In this document: in pieces, positions 1 through 17,895 of the stretch | Numbering within the stretch: the stretch's first letter is position 1 | Layout of the letters: the number at the start of each line of letters is the position of its first letter | DNA from: Nitrospirota bacterium | GTDB lineage: Bacteria > Nitrospirota > UBA9217 | Length of the DNA stretch: 64,000 bases | Assembly: GCA_963741205.1 (NCBI GenBank) | Contig: CAVUHW010000034.1 | Span: forward strand, 145,710-209,709 | Direction: 5' to 3' | The notes under the pieces: model-generated | Databases searched by the model: none | Seen by the model: only the letters and a program-made list of their open reading frames with translations | What the model was told of the DNA's origin: nothing | Position numbers and translations under genes: made by a program

Positions 1-357
1 TCATGATCGTGATCTCGATCATGGGAATCCTCATCGCGATCGCCGCGCCGAACCTCAAAGTGTCCATTATCAGGGCGCGCGAGGCCGTGCTCAGGGAAGA
101 CCTGTTCCAGATGCGCGAAGCCATCGACCAGTACTATGCTGACAACGGCAAATTCCCCCCGACGCTCAAGGACCTGATCAATGCCCAGGATCGGACGAGA
201 AGCTACCTGCGCGACATCCCCAAAGACCCCTTTACGGGCGCAGACGACTGGATCACAGTGGCGCCGGAAGGAACGGACGCGGAAGGCGGCGTCTTCGACG
301 TGCACAGCGCGAGCCCGCTTCTTGGCCGTGGACGGCACTGCGTACAATACCTGGTGA
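1..357 (+). CDS. Type II secretion pseudopilin (GspG/PulG-like), 5' truncated by the window edge, with a frameshift near the 3' end
   Basis: Pilin-type hydrophobic N-terminus (MIVISIMGILIAIAAP), AREAVLREDL..MREAIDQYYAD.GKFP, YLRDIPKDPFT. The typical C-terminus DGTAYNTW* lies in another frame and ends at 357. Confidence 0.8.
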
Positions 358-530
358 TTGTTCCCCACGCCCTACTTCGTCGCAAAAAACGAACGTTTCC
401 CGGGGATGACCATCAGCTCCGGTTTGTGAAGTATATTATTTATCATGGTAACCCGGCCACCCGGTTTTTTCTCCCCTGTTGCGTAAACTGACCAAAATTA
501 TAGATATCCTTCAGTGGCATAGTAATTGAA

Positions 531-1194
531 ATGTGCTTTGCTTATAAAAAGAAGGCAGGACGGCAGTCTGTCTGGATTACTAGCGAGCTATTCAGGTTCG
601 TTCCTACTGGAGGCTCAAAACAGCGGCAAGACAAAACTATATATGAGCACCGGCTGATGCTTGGCACAAAGTCGGTCGATCTGGGCGAACTTAAGTTCAA
701 AGCTCATGATGAGTACGAGGTTCCGGCGGCTATCACCATTTCCCGGGAGTCCGAGAAATGGTATGTCTCCTTCTCCTATGAGAAGCAAGGCGCGGTTTTA
801 AGCGAGCAGGAACTTCTCGAGCTTTACGGCGGCATGTCAACAGAGAGTCTTAATACCGTTACCTTGGGAATGGACCGAGGGGTTGATAATCCCGCTGGCA
901 ACGAGCGACGGATTTATGTATGACTTCTCCGGCATACAAAAGGAGCGTCTGGCAAAAAAGGATGCCGGAAGAAGAGATATCAGAGCAAATGGCAAGCGGA
1001 TCAGTGACCGCCCGCATAAGCAAGCTGCAGCGAAATCAGCCGGTGCCAGGCTTATGCTGCCAATGTGAGGCATGATTTCGCGCATAAGGCCAGCCGCAGC
1101 TCGCGGATTCACCCGCGGAGGTGTTCGTCTTCGAGGACCGCAAGGTCAAGAACATGACCAGAGTGCCAAAACCTAGGAAGTCAGCCGGCGGGAC
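531..1194 (+). pseudogene. tnpB: IS200/IS605-family TnpB remnant, 5' part (frameshifted, interrupted by IS110)
   Basis: WYVSFSYE, RuvC-I LGMDRGV, IPLATSDG, then HKAS and RuvC-II VFEDRKVKNMTRVPKP spread across several frames. Confidence 0.8.
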
Positions 1195-1336
1195 ATCCTA
1201 TAATGCCCCTGTCAAGTACAAGTTCAGCACACTGATCTTTCAACACGATGGCAAACGGCACTTAAGCAGGGCGTAGTTCGCCATATAACCCGCGATGGGC
1301 ATTCGTGCTTTTCTTCGACGATTCTCTCACTGAAGC

Positions 1337-1531
1337 GAACTTGCTCTCTCAGCGTTATATTATCCGGCGTGCCGTTGCCGCCAAGCATCCCTTATCCAGA
1401 TTCCAAGTTCTATGAGAGGCCCTGCATTGTCCCGCACGAGGTCATTTGCCTCAACGTATTGTCTCGGGCTCTCTACGTCGAAATATAATTTTCAGGGCTT
1501 CTTGCTCGGAAAACGCACGAGCAGGAAGCCC
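1337..1531 (-). ncRNA. Candidate IS110 bridge/seek RNA in the 3' non-coding end
   Basis: 5' hairpin at 1495-1531. A loop closed by the 1414-1422/1466-1473 stem carries target matches (1454-1459, 1429-1435). A loop closed by GAACTTG/CAAGTTC (1337-1343/1404-1410) carries donor matches (1386-1390, 1354-1360). Confidence 0.75.
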
Positions 1532-1555
1532 GTATTTGAGTCCTCTCGATCTAGC

Positions 1556-2846
1556 CTATGCCTTGCTATCCCCCTGGTTGAGGTATTTGGGGTCGTACGG
1601 CTCCTTCTTTTTCATCAGGGTCCAGGCAATGATCAGAAGCTTCGCTGCAAGTTTCACCCGCATCTTGGTGCCGATCCCTTTCTCCCGCTCCCGTCCCCGG
1701 ATCTTGTTCGTGTGGTAAATGATAAACTCTTTGTTGTTGAGCGAGCAGATGATCGCCGCCGGATATAGTGCATAGCGAAGATCGCCTTTCCCATGTTTGG
1801 AGATCACGGCGTGGCGCTCTGTGACGTCTTCCCGCTTCGGCTCGCGCATAGGTCGAAGCCGGCCATCTTCAAGACCTGTTTGCCGGCCGTAAAGCGCTTG
1901 GGGTCTCCAATGGCGGCGAGGACCTTGGCTGACACATCCGGACCAAACCCCGGGATCGTGAGAAGGAACGAGTACTCCGGAAACTTCAGGCAGATGTCCA
2001 CGATCTTGTCTTCAAGGTTCTTCATCGTCTCTCGGACGCGATGGAGAGCCGCCACCATGATCTGTGCCTCCACGGACACTGCTTCTCCGACGATACAGCC
2101 TATGGACTGCTTGGCAGCCCGCCATATCTGCGTAAGCCGACCTGCTGAGGCAAACTCACCTTGCCGGGCGAGACGGTCCGGCAGAATTCATCGTACTCCA
2201 TGACCGAGATCAGCGAAGGGTCCAGACAGCGGCTTACCACGTTCAGACTCGCCACTGACCCGAAGTGCTGGTCCATCTCCGGGAAGTACTGGGCCAAAAG
2301 CTGATTGCGGATGCGGACCCGAAGGCCGTGCTCCTCCTTCTTGAGCCGTTTCTTTAAGGACAACAGGCCCCGCAGGGACCGAAGATCCTCTCCCGGGCAG
2401 TCGTAGTACAGGCATTTCCCTTGGGCTATCAGGTCGGCGACATTGGCGGAATCCTTCGTGTCGTGCTTATCCCACCGGCCGTCCAGAAGCTCCCGGTTCT
2501 TTGACGTGGCCGCCGCAGATACCAGAACCACCAAGTGCCCCCCCTTGATAAGATACTCTCCCAAGGGCTTGTGGTAGTTGGCCGTGGGCTCCAAGCCGAA
2601 GACCACCTTCCGGTGGCCGTGCTGCACCTTGAGGGCGTCCGTCTGGATCAAAAGCTTCTGAAAGCCCTCATAGGTATTGTCAAAGAACATTCCTTTGTGC
2701 AGCGTCTTGCCGGCGGCCGTGCCGAAGAAAGCGTTGTGCCGTTCCTTGGCGATGTCCAGGCCGATAATCAAATACTCCGTTGAACCTCGAATCTCCTTTT
2801 GGAATCGACAAAACTGCTCGCGTCTGCTATCATTGAAATCATTCAC
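1556..2846 (-). CDS. IS110-family DEDD transposase/recombinase (two frameshifts; probable GTG start at 2846)
   Basis: IIGLDIAKERH, FGLEPTANYH, KHDTKDSANVADL, LLTIPGFGPDVSAKVLAAIGDPKRF, SRSGK, ISKHGKGDLRYALY, KLAAKLLIIAWTLMK in ORFs 2100..2864, 1804..2079 and 1556..1849. AGGAGG precedes the GTG. Confidence 0.92.
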
Positions 2847-2907
2847 AGAAACCTCCTGCCTCAAGAATTTAGTTCCCGCATGAACTTATTCTTAGCAGGA
2901 GGTTTCT
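2847..2907 (-). promoter_or_regulatory. Long hairpin covering the transposase ribosome-binding site
   Basis: Perfect 13-bp arms agaaacctcctgc (2847-2859) and gcaggaggtttct (2895-2907), with further inner pairing. Confidence 0.6.
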
Positions 2908-2984
2908 ATTTTGGATAGATTGAAAAAGAACTTCCTCTATGATTTACTGGGGAAGATCAACCTCATGCTCTATCCATATATAAC

Positions 2985-3040
2985 GTATATCCCGAACGGA
3001 TCAAAGGCCAAGGCCGGTCTCAACAAGTCCATAATTGAAG
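2985..3040 (+). pseudogene. tnpB: TnpB remnant, 3' part after the IS110 insertion
   Basis: YIPNGSKAKAGLNKSII matches the NG..AK.GLN..I motif that follows RuvC-II in TnpB. No zinc finger or RuvC-III is seen downstream. Confidence 0.75.
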
Positions 3041-3164
3041 TGATGCGGAATATCGCGTGGCGACGGATGCTATTAAACCTCTTCCTATCGAGAGTGTCTC
3101 ATTCCATTGACGGACTCCGCATATCGGAGAGGGGCGGAGATTATCCATTTCGGGAGGGAATCAT

Positions 3165-4793
3165 ATGATGTTCAGAAGGCATCTTGCCTGGGTTTTGGTT
3201 TTACTGGCTGTAGCAGCGTTGCAGGCGTGCGGAAATAACTCGAGTTCATCGGAAAGCGGGACAACTTCTCAGACAGGCGTCGTAGCAATAAAACTTACGG
3301 ACGCGCCGGGAGATTTCGATCATGTGTATATTACGGTGAAGGACATCTGGTTCCATACGAGCGACGCGGCCGATCCGCGTACGGGAGCCTGGCTCAAGTA
3401 TCCGCTCACGCAACCCGTCATCGTTGATCTCCTGGCTCTCTCGAGCGGGAACATGCAGTCCCTCTGGAACAACATCCAGCTCCCGGCAGGCACGTACCGG
3501 CAGATCAGACTGTTTTTGGAACCTACCAATCCGACCGCCGTCAACCCCGCCCCGACAGGCCACACGTATTTCAACGAGGTTGTCATCGGTTCAACGACCT
3601 CTCCCCTGTATATACCGGACGCCGACCACGGCATCATGCTGACCGGCGCGTTCGGCGTGACGGCCGGAGGCACGCTCAATCTTGCCATTGACCTCGACGC
3701 CGGCCACGACATCGTGGAATTCCACGAAGGAACGGACTTCGTCTTAAAACCGAGGCTCAACTACTTCGACCTTGACCATGTGGGCGCCATTATCGGCAAG
3801 CTCTCCACCGGCGGATCACTAACGGCCCCCCGTTTCGTGATCAAGGCCGAGCGTCTCTCCACGGAGAAGGAAATGGAAGACGCCGGCGCGGTGAGCCCTT
3901 TCCATGTGGTGAGACGCTGGACTGTTCCCAGGGCCGACGGTACGTTTATTCTCTATCCCGTATCGACGCTGGTCACCAGCACGTGGGATGTCGTGATCCG
4001 GGGCTTGAACACGGAGACCATGATCATTAAAGGGGTGCCGGTCACAAAAGGCACGACCACGGCGAACGGCACGGACCTCGCCGTCATCAGCACGACTCCG
4101 ACGAGTACCAATGACTACGCGGTCGACGGAACGATCCAGTCGCCCACGGGCGCATGGGTGCAGTTCTACCAAACCCTTCCGGGGGCCGGGGAGTACCCCT
4201 ATGAGATCCGGTTCCGCCATTTCAATCCGCTCACGGGAGGTTTCAGGAACTTCCCATTGAACAACGATCAGATCCAGGTGGCGAATTTCGTGAGCAGCGG
4301 GGCAACACTTACGTTCACGCCGGAGACCCCTGCCGGCGGCGCCGGCAATTATGGCGCCGTGGCCGACGCAATTCTGTTCAAACACAGCGACCCCATACCG
4401 GTCACTTCATCGACGACGACCGTCGCGTTCACAACGCCGCTTCAGGTGGTGTCTCCCTATAAGGGAAACAGCGTGACCGGCACGATCACCATGAACAATC
4501 CGTTAAGGATGAACAATAAGATGGACAGGGGCCGGCTCTTCGCGGTGCACGGCGGAATGATCGTCAATGCCGTCGATGTCAGCAGTCAGATGACGGGGAC
4601 GACCACCAATGCATACAGCATCGATCTGCCCGGCGGCGATGCGGCAACACCGCTTCCCGGCGCCTTCTACGGGATCGATGCGGTCGGTTGGTCCTCGACG
4701 AGCCCCCTGTTCAAGGCGATAGCGATTCCTCAGATCGTGGATGTCCGCACAGGGAACGATATTGCCACGGTGGATATGCTGCCGCTCTGGTAG
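3165..4793 (+). CDS. DUF4382-domain lipoprotein
   Basis: Lipobox LQAC, IKLTDAPGDFDHVYITV, VDLLAL..G, LPAGTYRQIRLFL. Intact 542-aa ORF with a GGAGG RBS. Confidence 0.8.
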   Translation: MMFRRHLAWVLVLLAVAALQACGNNSSSSESGTTSQTGVVAIKLTDAPGDFDHVYITVKDIWFHTSDAADPRTGAWLKYPLTQPVIVDLLALSSGNMQSLWNNIQLPAGTYRQIRLFLEPTNPTAVNPAPTGHTYFNEVVIGSTTSPLYIPDADHGIMLTGAFGVTAGGTLNLAIDLDAGHDIVEFHEGTDFVLKPRLNYFDLDHVGAIIGKLSTGGSLTAPRFVIKAERLSTEKEMEDAGAVSPFHVVRRWTVPRADGTFILYPVSTLVTSTWDVVIRGLNTETMIIKGVPVTKGTTTANGTDLAVISTTPTSTNDYAVDGTIQSPTGAWVQFYQTLPGAGEYPYEIRFRHFNPLTGGFRNFPLNNDQIQVANFVSSGATLTFTPETPAGGAGNYGAVADAILFKHSDPIPVTSSTTTVAFTTPLQVVSPYKGNSVTGTITMNNPLRMNNKMDRGRLFAVHGGMIVNAVDVSSQMTGTTTNAYSIDLPGGDAATPLPGAFYGIDAVGWSSTSPLFKAIAIPQIVDVRTGNDIATVDMLPLW

Positions 4794-15620: not shown

Positions 15621-17077
15621 ATGAAATACGAGGCAGTCATCGGGCTTGAGGTGCATGCCCAGCTCCAGACCAACACGAAGATCTTCTGCGGGTGCGAGAC
15701 GCGTTTCGGCGAAGAGGCGAACACGCGCACCTGCCCGGTCTGCATCGGTATGCCGGGCGTGCTGCCGGTGCTGAACAAAAAGGCAATTGAATACATCATC
15801 AAGACCGGGGTCGCCACGCATTGTTCGATTAGTCCCTACAGCCGGTTCGCGCGGAAAAACTATTTCTATCCCGACCTTCCCAAGGGCTACCAGATATCGC
15901 AGTATGAACTGCCGGTCTGCGAACACGGGTATGTTGAAATCGTGGCCGACGGGAAGATCAAGCGCGTCGGCATCACGCGGATCCATCTTGAGGAGGACGC
16001 GGGCAAGAACCTGCACCAGGCCGAAAGCGGGGCCAGTCTCGTGGACCTGAACCGCGCCGGGACGCCGCTCATGGAGATCGTGTCCGAGCCGGACATTCGG
16101 ACCCCGGAAGAAGCGTCGGAATATCTGAAAAAGCTCCGCTCCATCCTTCGCTATATCGAGGTGTCCGACGCCGATATGGAAAAGGGGAACTTCCGCTGCG
16201 ACGCCAATGTCTCGATTCGGCCGATTGGATCCAGTGAGTTCGGCACGCGGGCCGAGATCAAGAACGTGAATTCCTTCAAGTTCGTGCAGAAGGCGATCGA
16301 GTACGAGATCAAGCGCCAGGCGCAGGTCCTCGACGACGGAGGCAAGGTCCTCCAGGAGACCCGCCTCTTCGACTCGGCCAAGGGCGTCACCTTCTCCATG
16401 CGGAGCAAGGAAGAGGCCCACGACTACCGCTATTTCCCCGAACCGGACCTCGTGCCGGTCGTCGTTTCGAAAGAGACGGTCGAGAACATCGGCAGGACTA
16501 TTCCCGAACTTCCCGACGCCAAGCGGGAGCGGTTCGTGAAGGAGTATGCCTTGCCTGAATATGATGCGGATACGCTGACGCTGACAAGGGCAACGGCCGC
16601 CTACTATGAGGAAACGGCAGGGGCGTCAACCAAGCTGTCGATCAATGTCTCCGATTATCCCAAGGTGGTCTCGAATTGGATGATGGGTGAGTTGACGCGT
16701 CTTTTAAACGCTGAGGGAAAAGGAGATTGAGGATTGTCCGATAAAACCGGACAGGCTGGCCGGCATGATCAAGATGATCAGTGACGGCGTGATCAGCACC
16801 AAGATCGCGAAGACCGTGCTTCGAGGAGATGTACAAGTCCGGTAAGGACGCTGAAACGGTCGTCAGGGAAAAGGGGCTGGTCCAGGTTTCGGACACCGGC
16901 GAGATCGAAAAGATCATAGATGAGGTGATCAAGGCGAACCCGGCACAACACGCCGATTATAAAACCGGCAAAGAGAAACTCTTCGGGTTCTTCGTGGGCC
17001 AGGTGATGAAGGCGAGCAAGGGGAAGGCGAACCCGGAGCTTGTGAACCAGCTGCTCAAGAAGAAATTAAGTGAATAA
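15621..17077 (+). CDS. gatB: Asp/Glu-tRNA amidotransferase subunit B (frameshifts near the 3' end)
   Basis: [61 protein letters not shown]. Confidence 0.97.
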
Positions 17078-17103
17078 CATGAAGCACTGCGGATTTCCCT
17101 TCA

Positions 17104-17147
17104 ACCTACCCTCTCCCCTCAGGGGAGAGGACAAGAGGAGAGGGGTG
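17104..17147. repeat. Palindromic repeat, family B (CCCTCTCCC...GGGAGAGG), followed by cgcaatc heptamers to about 17184
   Basis: ccctctcccctcaggggagagg; related copies at 29246 and 30517. Confidence 0.65.
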
Positions 17148-17202
17148 GTTTCATTCCGCAATCGGCAATCCGCAATCCGAAATTAAACGAGGGGGAATCA
17201 CC

Positions 17203-17895
17203 ATGATTGAATGGATTCGAAAGCACATGGGCTGGATGATGTGGATCATCGTGGGGCTGGTGACGGTCACGTTCCTTTTTTTCGGGATCTATCCGTCGTC
17301 ACAGGGCAAGGGGGCCGTGGCCAAGGTCGGCGATACGGTTATCACGTCGGAAGAGCTGAACATGGCCTACCGGAACCTGTATGAAAATTACCGGGAAATT
17401 TTAAAAGGCCAGCTTAATGAGTCCTTCACGAAGGGCCTCAGAAATCAGGCGCTGCAGGAATTGATCGTGAACCGCTTGCTCCTCGACGAGGCCGAACGCG
17501 AAGGGCTCAGGGTCAGCGATGAGGAACTGCAGGCGTCCATCATGAGGATGCCCGCCTTCATGCAGAACGGAAGATTCAACAAGCAGATCTATGAGCGTAC
17601 CCTCGACCGAATCAATATGACGCCAGCGGTGTTCGAAAACGGTCAGCGCGAGTATCTGCTGCGTCAGAAGCTGGAACACCTCGTGAAAGACAGCGTGGTC
17701 GTGGGAGACGCCGAGCTCAGCTCCGCCTATATGCGGAAAAATCCCAACGCGAAACCGGGGGATTTTGAGAAGAATAAGGAAGGCTTCAGACAGACGTATC
17801 TCGCGGAGAAACAGCGCGACGCCCTGACTGCGTTTATCCGGAACATTCAGACCCGGATTCCGGTAAAGATCGAGGACAAGGCGCTGGCGTCATAA
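17203..17895 (+). CDS. SurA N-terminal domain protein (PpiD-like chaperone without a PPIase domain)
   Basis: N-terminal TM helix, VAKVGDTVITSEE, ALQELIVNRLLLDEA...GLRVSDEEL...I..MPAF..NGRF. Confidence 0.85.
   Translation: MIEWIRKHMGWMMWIIVGLVTVTFLFFGIYPSSQGKGAVAKVGDTVITSEELNMAYRNLYENYREILKGQLNESFTKGLRNQALQELIVNRLLLDEAEREGLRVSDEELQASIMRMPAFMQNGRFNKQIYERTLDRINMTPAVFENGQREYLLRQKLEHLVKDSVVVGDAELSSAYMRKNPNAKPGDFEKNKEGFRQTYLAEKQRDALTAFIRNIQTRIPVKIEDKALAS

Follow-up and report, generated by a model that had tools for sequence, protein, structure and literature searches.

How did an insertion sequence (IS) come to lie inside the coding region of another mobile element, and was its site chosen by an RNA guide? 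These questions are raised by a locus in a stretch of 64,000 nucleotides (nt) from a Nitrospirota bacterium (assembly GCA_963741205.1, contig CAVUHW010000034.1), which is designated the window below and corresponds to G000:C34:145710-209709 in our numbering of genomes and contigs. A direct reading of the window reveals a plus-strand frame resembling tnpB, which extends from approximately position 539 to 1194 and resumes at 2985, and the 1790 bases separating the two pieces (1195-2984) encode a transposase of the IS110 family on the minus strand. This arrangement is very probably the result of a bridge-RNA-guided insertion, in which an IS110-family element of about 1.79 kb, belonging to the subgroup with a 3' non-coding region, entered one copy of a tnpB-only IS. 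In the proposed mechanism, the IS would encode an RNA of approximately 170 nt with two internal loops. The guides of the target loop would specify the sequence ATAC-GT-CCCGC, which corresponds to the tnpB codons G325-T326-Y327 read on the opposite strand, and the donor loop would match the abutted ends of the IS itself. Recombination at the GT core would then leave one copy of the core on each side and no longer duplication. Several findings support this explanation directly: junctions known to the base, a core that occurs once in each paralog, the domains of the encoded proteins, an RNA fold conserved among relatives, and guides that covary with the flanks in these relatives.

The limits of the insertion follow from a comparison with uninterrupted copies of the same tnpB. 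The left frame reads ...AAG TCA GCC GGC GGG AC up to position 1194, the right piece starts at 2985 with G TAT ATC CCG AAC GGA..., and the dinucleotide AC is present at both junctions (1193-1194 and 2983-2984). In a BLAST search of the flanks against their own genome, all 17 uninterrupted paralogs were found to join the left piece (to 1194) directly to the right piece (from 2985) with a single AC, the matches of the left and the right flank overlapping by 2 bp. Because these paralogs are contiguous and contain only one AC, the ends of the IS are known to the base, save for the ambiguity of the 2-bp core, and a target duplication beyond this core was not found at the insertion when the 17 paralogs were compared. 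The insertion point is located inside codon T326 of tnpB, numbered according to an intact paralog (L047:1187-2629) that encodes a TnpB protein of 480 amino acids (aa) and served as reference. When this protein was compared with the joined flanks by tblastn, residues 294-345 crossed the junction with zero gap there (46/63 identical), and residues 106-293 matched the upstream flank (138/188 identical), in which three stops and one change of frame occur. A first-pass annotation, made from the letters of the window, had claimed a precise insertion of an IS110 element into tnpB with a 2-bp core and no long duplication, and had proposed an alignment of the joined flanks to TnpB as a check; both the paralogs and the alignment across the junction bear it out.

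On the strand of the IS, the core reads GT. Its left copy occupies 1193-1194, and the body of the element, 1788 bp between the core copies (1195-2982, minus strand), is missing from the 17 paralogous sites and has an 85% identical counterpart at G000:C6:163634-165205. The left terminus (2974-2984, minus strand) consists of GT, which is the second core copy (2983-2984), followed by TATATATGG. Both termini are conserved among the relatives of the element, which begin with GT and TATATATGG... and end with ...TTGACAG..TATAGGAT followed by GT. The non-coding ends comprise about 130 bp on the left and about 360 bp on the right. Terminal inverted repeats are absent, the longest inverted match between the 80-bp ends being one of 7 bp at unequal distances; what the ends have in common is the short core.

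The assignment to the IS110 family is based on the transposase gene (1556-2864, minus strand), which is present in three frame pieces (2864-2100, 2079-1804, and 1849-1556). PF01548 (DEDD_Tnp_IS110), the N-terminal DEDD/RuvC-like domain, is matched over the entire profile (1-155 of 155) with 70.7 bits (cut-off 29). PF02371 (Transposase_20), the C-terminal domain, is matched with 44.4 bits (cut-off 21.3) on the middle piece, and the remainder of the domain, which is split by a frame break, scores 13.8 bits on the third piece. With NF033542, the three separate pieces reach 68.7, 47.2, and 23.7 bits, to be set against an equivalog cut-off of 140 for a gene that is here divided by frame breaks. An intact relative of 435 aa (L055:1639-2946) obtains 150.2 bits with the same model (cut-off 140, profile 1-342 of 343) and matches the IS621 transposase structure entry 8wt6 with an E value of 1.6e-17.

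The candidate for the guiding RNA lies in the non-coding stretch that follows the transposase gene (1315-1483, minus strand), where a bridge RNA (seekRNA) of about 170 nt was predicted from a fold alignment. For this purpose, 12 distinct right-end regions were aligned, taken from IS relatives of 68-72% identity in the same genus and family that were obtained by searching 60 related genomes. In the fold predicted by RNAalifold, an outer stem is combined with two arms that are each interrupted by an internal loop; it comprises 43 pairs, seven of which show compensatory changes. Paired cells account for 97.5% of the alignment at the predicted positions, as against 34-46% with slid partners, and none of 500 shuffles reached the covariation score. 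The predicted target loop contains two guides on the transposase strand, separated by 18 nt around a short hairpin. The left target guide, ATACGT (1454-1459, minus strand), combines the left target ATAC with the core GT, and the right target guide, GCGGGAC (1429-1435, minus strand), is the reverse complement of the core GT plus the right target CCCGC; each of them covaries with the respective flank in the relatives. Taken together, the two guides agree with the site ATAC-GT-CCCGC at 11/11 positions, so that the predicted guide fits the site and would account for the insertion.

For the donor loop, the match to the element's own ends is weaker evidence than that on the target side. The putative left donor guide GGGATGC (1385-1391, minus strand) contains GGAT, which matches the terminal bases of the right end. 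Where the right end varies between G and T (TAGGAT vs TAGTAT), the loop varies with it (GGGATG vs GGTATT). The putative right donor guide ATATAAC (1354-1360, minus strand), proposed from the sequence, is the reverse complement of the core GT plus the left-end TATAT; of the 12 aligned sequences, 11 retain ATAAC or TAAC, the exception being L053 with ATATC. As judged from sequence and covariation, the predicted RNA appears to possess loops complementary to the target as well as to the donor ends, and we infer that it is made and bound and that the insertion took place by the guided route. The ends also carry a possible promoter motif. TTGACA near the right end (1210-1215, minus strand) is conserved in all 14 relatives with an aligned right end, and when the ends are abutted they read TTGACA-17 bp-TATATA across the core, TATATA being contributed by the left end. 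A sigma-70-like promoter would thus form only on the circularised element, as is stated for the circle junction in this family in PMC11187229.

Further support for the guides comes from the relatives, in which guide and flank change together. The right guide and the right flank (core plus 5 nt) agree at four or more of the five positions in 10/12 elements, with seven different sequences. The right targets are CCCGC in the window, ATTTT in L076, AATC in L053, CCCC in L055, L074, and L058, AGGTG in L056 and L059, CGCAC in L078, and AGTTG in L090. The left targets vary as well: ATAC in the window, CAAC in the C6 copy, L055, and L054, CTAC in L074 and L082 (and in L081 with one mismatch), GCTA in L075, with GCTT in three sister copies and GATA in one, ATGGG in L076 together with L087, and ACCAG in L052. 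L087 and L076 (G001:C7:13327-13904 and 16912-17718) are the left and right parts of one IS relative, separated by approximately 3 kb. Since the left guide, ATGGG, agrees with the flank beside the left part, this relative seems to have been split by an insertion in its turn.

A wider survey was conducted with a right-end motif in a genome collection, where 111 stretches were matched and 80 loci were examined (L091-L170). The stretches are derived from metagenome-assembled genomes labelled Nitrospirota, Thermodesulfobacteriota/Deltaproteobacteria, and others. Since the target loop was recovered by a regular expression in just one of the 80 loci, the guide statistics given above were not drawn from this set. 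Most of the right flanks in the collection begin with CCCC or CCCT and several have CCCCAAAGT in common, for which reason the IS clade seems to have a common conserved target.

Several findings weigh against the explanation favoured here and are therefore considered together. The right-guide rule fails in two of the 12 elements (L052 with 0/5 and L062 with 3/5 positions), and the left guide of L056 does not fit its flank. The predicted RNA rests on our own alignment of 12 sequences, and a scan of positions 1-3400 of the window against Rfam (E values up to 1) matched no family; most of the covariation stems from two clades, and the two stems flanking the target loop are invariant. The left donor guide is without pairing to the second core base. 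Moreover, two breaks interrupt the transposase frame of the window copy, which lacks one base at 2141/2142 and one at 1807/1808 in comparison with the C6 copy; for this reason the window copy of the IS is possibly inactive. Finally, the right-end junction is the only one backed by a separate contig, as none among the short-read contigs listed bridges position 2984.

These short-read contigs, which originate from soil-metagenome runs of one study (X1, X2, and X4) and are about 98.6% identical to the window, have a bearing on the frame breaks. One extra base is present in them at 2141 (X1, X2, X4), at 1806 (X1, X4), and at 1330; those at 2141 and 1806 coincide with the breaks of the transposase frame, and that at 1330 falls in the predicted bridge RNA. 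Because the contigs carry the extra base at both breaks, the breaks reflect either mistakes made in assembling a repeat or variation among strains or copies, and an in-frame version of the IS exists in that environment at the same tnpB junction. The window copy itself may be inactive, as suggested by its reading frame. Single-base deletions may have gone uncorrected in the repeats of the assembly. Breaks are not common in the rest of the window, 82% of which is covered by frames of 120 codons or more. A contig from X1 (record 5, 1146-1981) spans the junction between tnpB and the right end of the IS. Window positions 300-507 are without cover, and a circle junction (back-joint) was not detected, both among the contigs listed. 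The search for an empty site, which had also been proposed at the outset, yielded one X1 contig that joins 1192 to 2983 and was considered as an excised allele of the window locus. It was taken as a paralog instead, because the contigs at 3033 continue into a full-length tnpB, which is missing at this locus.

The host of the insertion is itself a fragment, which the first-pass annotation had missed, as it had the broken state of both genes in this assembly. Its 5' piece (539-1194, plus strand) covers residues 106-326, approximately, of the 480-aa paralog, is 5'-truncated at 539, and shows 90-93% identity to the 17 paralogs in BLAST; its 3' piece (2985-3039, plus strand) covers residues 327-345, the homology to the paralogs ending at 3039. 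The copy thus represents an internal part of the element (positions ~503-1221 of 1654), cut off at 539 and 3039 of the window, with unique sequence in the flanks beyond. It contains three internal stops (two TGA and one TAA) and a frame change. TnpB elements carry their guide (omega) RNA at the 3' end, and about 430 bp of the 3' end are gone here. Because the first ~105 and the last ~135 codons as well as both element ends are gone, the copy is dead, a remnant of a TnpB gene and not a TnpB gene. In agreement with this, the fragment scores 17.2 bits with NF040570 (guided_TnpB), or 27.5 bits when the stops are read through, both below the cut-off of 100 bits. The reference paralog reaches 217.2 bits with the same model (profile 1-389 of 389) and also matches the Pfam families OrfB_IS605, Cas12f1-like_TNB, and HTH_OrfB_IS605. 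The decay of tnpB may have preceded or followed the insertion of the IS.

The tnpB-only element of 1654 bp to which this fragment belongs is present in the genome in about 13 full-length and several partial copies with 90-97% identity. An open frame is retained by 5/13 full-length copies, and 8/13 are broken (C4, C17:10556, C20:220719, two on C28, C30, C34:55739, and C47); the partial copies end at varied points and have unique flanks. Neither a shared sequence nor a second IS end was found where the window copy (539 and 3039) and four other cut copies break off. Among the 61 genomes searched, the family with more than 90% identity occurs only in G000. Other tnpB relatives, with only 65-70% identity, were found in seven of the 60 related genomes, and none of these was broken at the insertion site (five candidates per genome scored). 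As this family was met in only one of the genomes searched and includes many broken and partial copies, its distribution suggests a recent burst followed by decay.

It remains to be asked whether tnpB is the target for which the IS is programmed. In the 4.27-Mb genome, the 11-mer specified by the guides is present at 16 places, of which 14 are in copies of tnpB, and all 16 are empty; of the 15 perfect tnpB sites, one is occupied and the other 14 are empty. The only other genomic copy of the IS, that on contig C6, is cut at its right end by the contig end and contains one in-frame TAG. Its left guide and its left flank both differ from those of the window element, and it is located upstream of a uvrA-like gene, outside tnpB. 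When the paralog TnpB was searched by tblastn, no match was obtained at 39 loci of IS relatives in the 60 related genomes, at the 80 right-end-motif loci of the genome collection, or at 10 metagenome loci, and the exact guide pair gave 0 matches in the metagenome scan. Ten metagenome matches to a 19-mer spanning the right-end/tnpB junction were rejected as chance matches, none having an IS end upstream and none showing similarity to the IS or to TnpB. The first-pass annotation had suggested that the target loop may be programmed for tnpB and that other insertions of the IS should then be enriched there. The first part stands insofar as the loop matches the site at every position and the guide-specified 11-mers lie mostly in tnpB; a habit of one element targeting the other, by contrast, is not borne out by the counts, given the single occupied site, the position of the C6 copy, and the lack of a tnpB match at the loci just enumerated. 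A lineage dedicated to tnpB is thus not supported by these counts.

An IS110-family element was nevertheless encountered a second time in this tnpB family. The element at G000:C20:166142-167761 (L213), 1620 bp in length and unrelated to that of the window, lies inside another copy at element position ~411, which is not the site used in the window. It has an AG core and the sequence TTGACA-17 bp-TATATT across its abutted ends, and its transposase is in several frame pieces; a relative with 69% identity is located at C14:37975-39514. Several matches of 6-8 nt were found in the search for its guides, none of them convincing. In all, 2/13 IS110-family loci of the genome lie in this tnpB family, which by our estimate makes up ~0.7% of the DNA.

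Three other explanations have to be weighed against a guided insertion of the ordinary kind. One of them assumes that the IS lineage was re-programmed (left target from CAAC or CTAC to ATAC, right target from CCCC to CCCGC) and now homes habitually on a conserved coding site of the amplified tnpB-only element, the tnpB copies being a recurrent safe harbour, or even the preferred one, for several unrelated bridge-recombinase elements or for IS110-family elements generally. The window guides do differ from the usual CAAC/CTAC and CCCC of the relatives, as re-programming would predict, and the concentration of the guide-specified 11-mers in tnpB (14/16), the in-frame IS at the same junction in the short-read contigs, and the nested element on C20 point in the same direction, as would an IS110-family gene that abuts an IS607-type tnpB element on another contig. 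If this were true, one class of RNA-guided mobile element would parasitise another. We nevertheless regard it as unlikely, because the other perfect sites are unoccupied, the sister copy on C6 lies elsewhere, the guide pair is absent from the metagenome scan, and the related loci (0/39, 0/80, 0/10) are without a nearby tnpB of this family. Furthermore, the enrichment of two in 13 presumes uniform insertion and ignores the purging of hits in essential genes, and the search for the guides of the C20 element gave no convincing match.

The opposite assumption, akin to the chance match in a dispensable gene that the first-pass annotation had offered as an alternative, is that of a landing by chance: the guide evolved for some other target, the tnpB site happens to hold the 11-mer, and a one-off event was kept because the gene is dispensable. 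We consider this assumption evenly poised between true and false. It is favoured by the single occupied site and by the frequency of the 11-mer outside tnpB, since ~2 occurrences are expected in 8.5 Mb of two-strand sequence and two were found; in addition, the right guide GCGGGAC is shared by L062, a relative from another genus that does not lie in tnpB. It is weakened by the fact that no other occupied ATAC-GT-CCCGC target was found, both occurrences outside tnpB being empty. The decision between this course of events and the guided insertion that we favour is a matter of history, which one genome cannot settle. An error of the assembly, by which the contig would wrongly join a tnpB repeat to the IS, is in our opinion highly improbable. 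Repeats assemble poorly, copies of tnpB sit at contig ends in C17, C35, and C47, and the IS shows single-base differences from the short-read contigs; yet both junctions fall at the same position of tnpB with the 2-bp core expected of the family, the predicted guide matches the site, and the right-end junction is spanned by the X1 contig, which is not fully independent, as X1 is possibly the source sample of the window. The locus is best described as one mobile element nested within a dispensable sequence that exists in many copies, a situation typical of the IS110 family, and not as demonstrated antagonism between the two elements.

For comparison with known systems, two publications (PMC11208160 and PMC11187229) were used. 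The element resembles IS621/ISEc21, IS110-family members whose DEDD recombinases are guided by a bridge RNA (seekRNA), in its two transposase domains (DEDD_Tnp_IS110 and Transposase_20), in the 2-bp core found at each junction, and in an RNA with predicted target and donor loops. Also in common with IS621/ISEc21 are the composition of the guides, of which the left one reads as the left target followed by the core and the right one is the reverse complement of the core followed by the right target (PMC11208160, PMC11187229), the order of the guides, with the bottom-strand match located 5' of the top-strand match, and the promoter predicted across the circle junction. In contrast to IS621/ISEc21, the RNA is encoded downstream and not upstream of the transposase gene and the core is GT; the transposase, with 435 aa in the intact relative, is longer than the IS621 chain of 328 aa. 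The downstream position of the RNA is not new, because PMC11187229 already refers to members of the IS110 family whose non-coding region lies at the 3' end.

In this last respect the element resembles the IS1111 group (ISEc11, ISKpn4, ISPa11), which has a long non-coding region and a guide RNA downstream of the transposase gene (PMC11187229). Membership in this group was considered and rejected. Subterminal inverted repeats of ~11-13 bp, at a distance of 7 bp from the left end and of 3 bp from the right, define the IS1111 group (PMC11187229), and none were found at the expected places in the ends of the window IS. In the seekRNA of IS1111, the top-strand match is located 5' of the bottom-strand match, whereas the bottom-strand match (1454-1459) precedes the top-strand match (1429-1435) in the minus-strand RNA of the window. 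The transposases of the group comprise 330-350 aa (PMC11187229), unlike the 435 aa of the intact relative. Because of the lack of such repeats, the reversed order of the guides, and the longer transposase, the element is placed outside the IS1111 group.

Insertion at one defined position of a mobile or repeated sequence is a habit already known for the IS110 family. IS4321 and IS5075 are found in the terminal repeats of the Tn21 family, ISKpn4 and ISPst6 in the attC sites of integrons, and ISPa11, ISPpu9, and IS621 in repetitive extragenic palindromic (REP) sequences (passages and works cited in PMC11208160 and PMC11187229). The element of the window shares this IS110/IS1111-type landing and differs from those elements in that its target is within the coding sequence of tnpB and that one occupied site is known. 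A literature search of titles and abstracts retrieved no IS110-family insertion in tnpB, which is not proof of absence. The insertion is thus a new instance of the known targeting of repeats and mobile elements by the IS110 family and not a new kind, and the knowledge of either family is unchanged by it. It shows that amplified tnpB elements can present many identical landing sites to IS110-family elements. The locus also offers a natural example in which a predicted target loop can be compared with an empty site known to the base, and the same genome provides 17 empty paralogous sites. Because of this readable site and of at least seven right-target sequences that track the guides, the clade is a useful natural series for the pairing rules of guide and target in this subgroup of the IS110 family, whose non-coding region lies 3' and which is less studied than IS621.

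Some minor observations concern related elements and the neighbourhood of the locus. On another contig of the genome (G000:C32:1-3735, L212), an IS607-type element consisting of a serine recombinase gene and a TnpB-like gene of 538 aa ends at position 2190; paralogs of this element are present on C8, C2, C15, and C20. An intact IS110-family gene of 370 aa starts at 2294 of the same contig, where homology to a copy on C12 begins at 2190 and a short repeat is located at ~3733-3864. The relation between this gene and the IS607-type element may be one of adjacency or of nesting. A solitary right end or a guide-RNA remnant may be present at G000:C4:12633-12897. The window also contains a pilin-like gene (3-491) with a weak Pfam match to protein G of the type II secretion system and an apparent frame change near 320. 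The frame at 181-357 of this gene ends with ...DGTAYNTW, which resembles a natural C-terminus.

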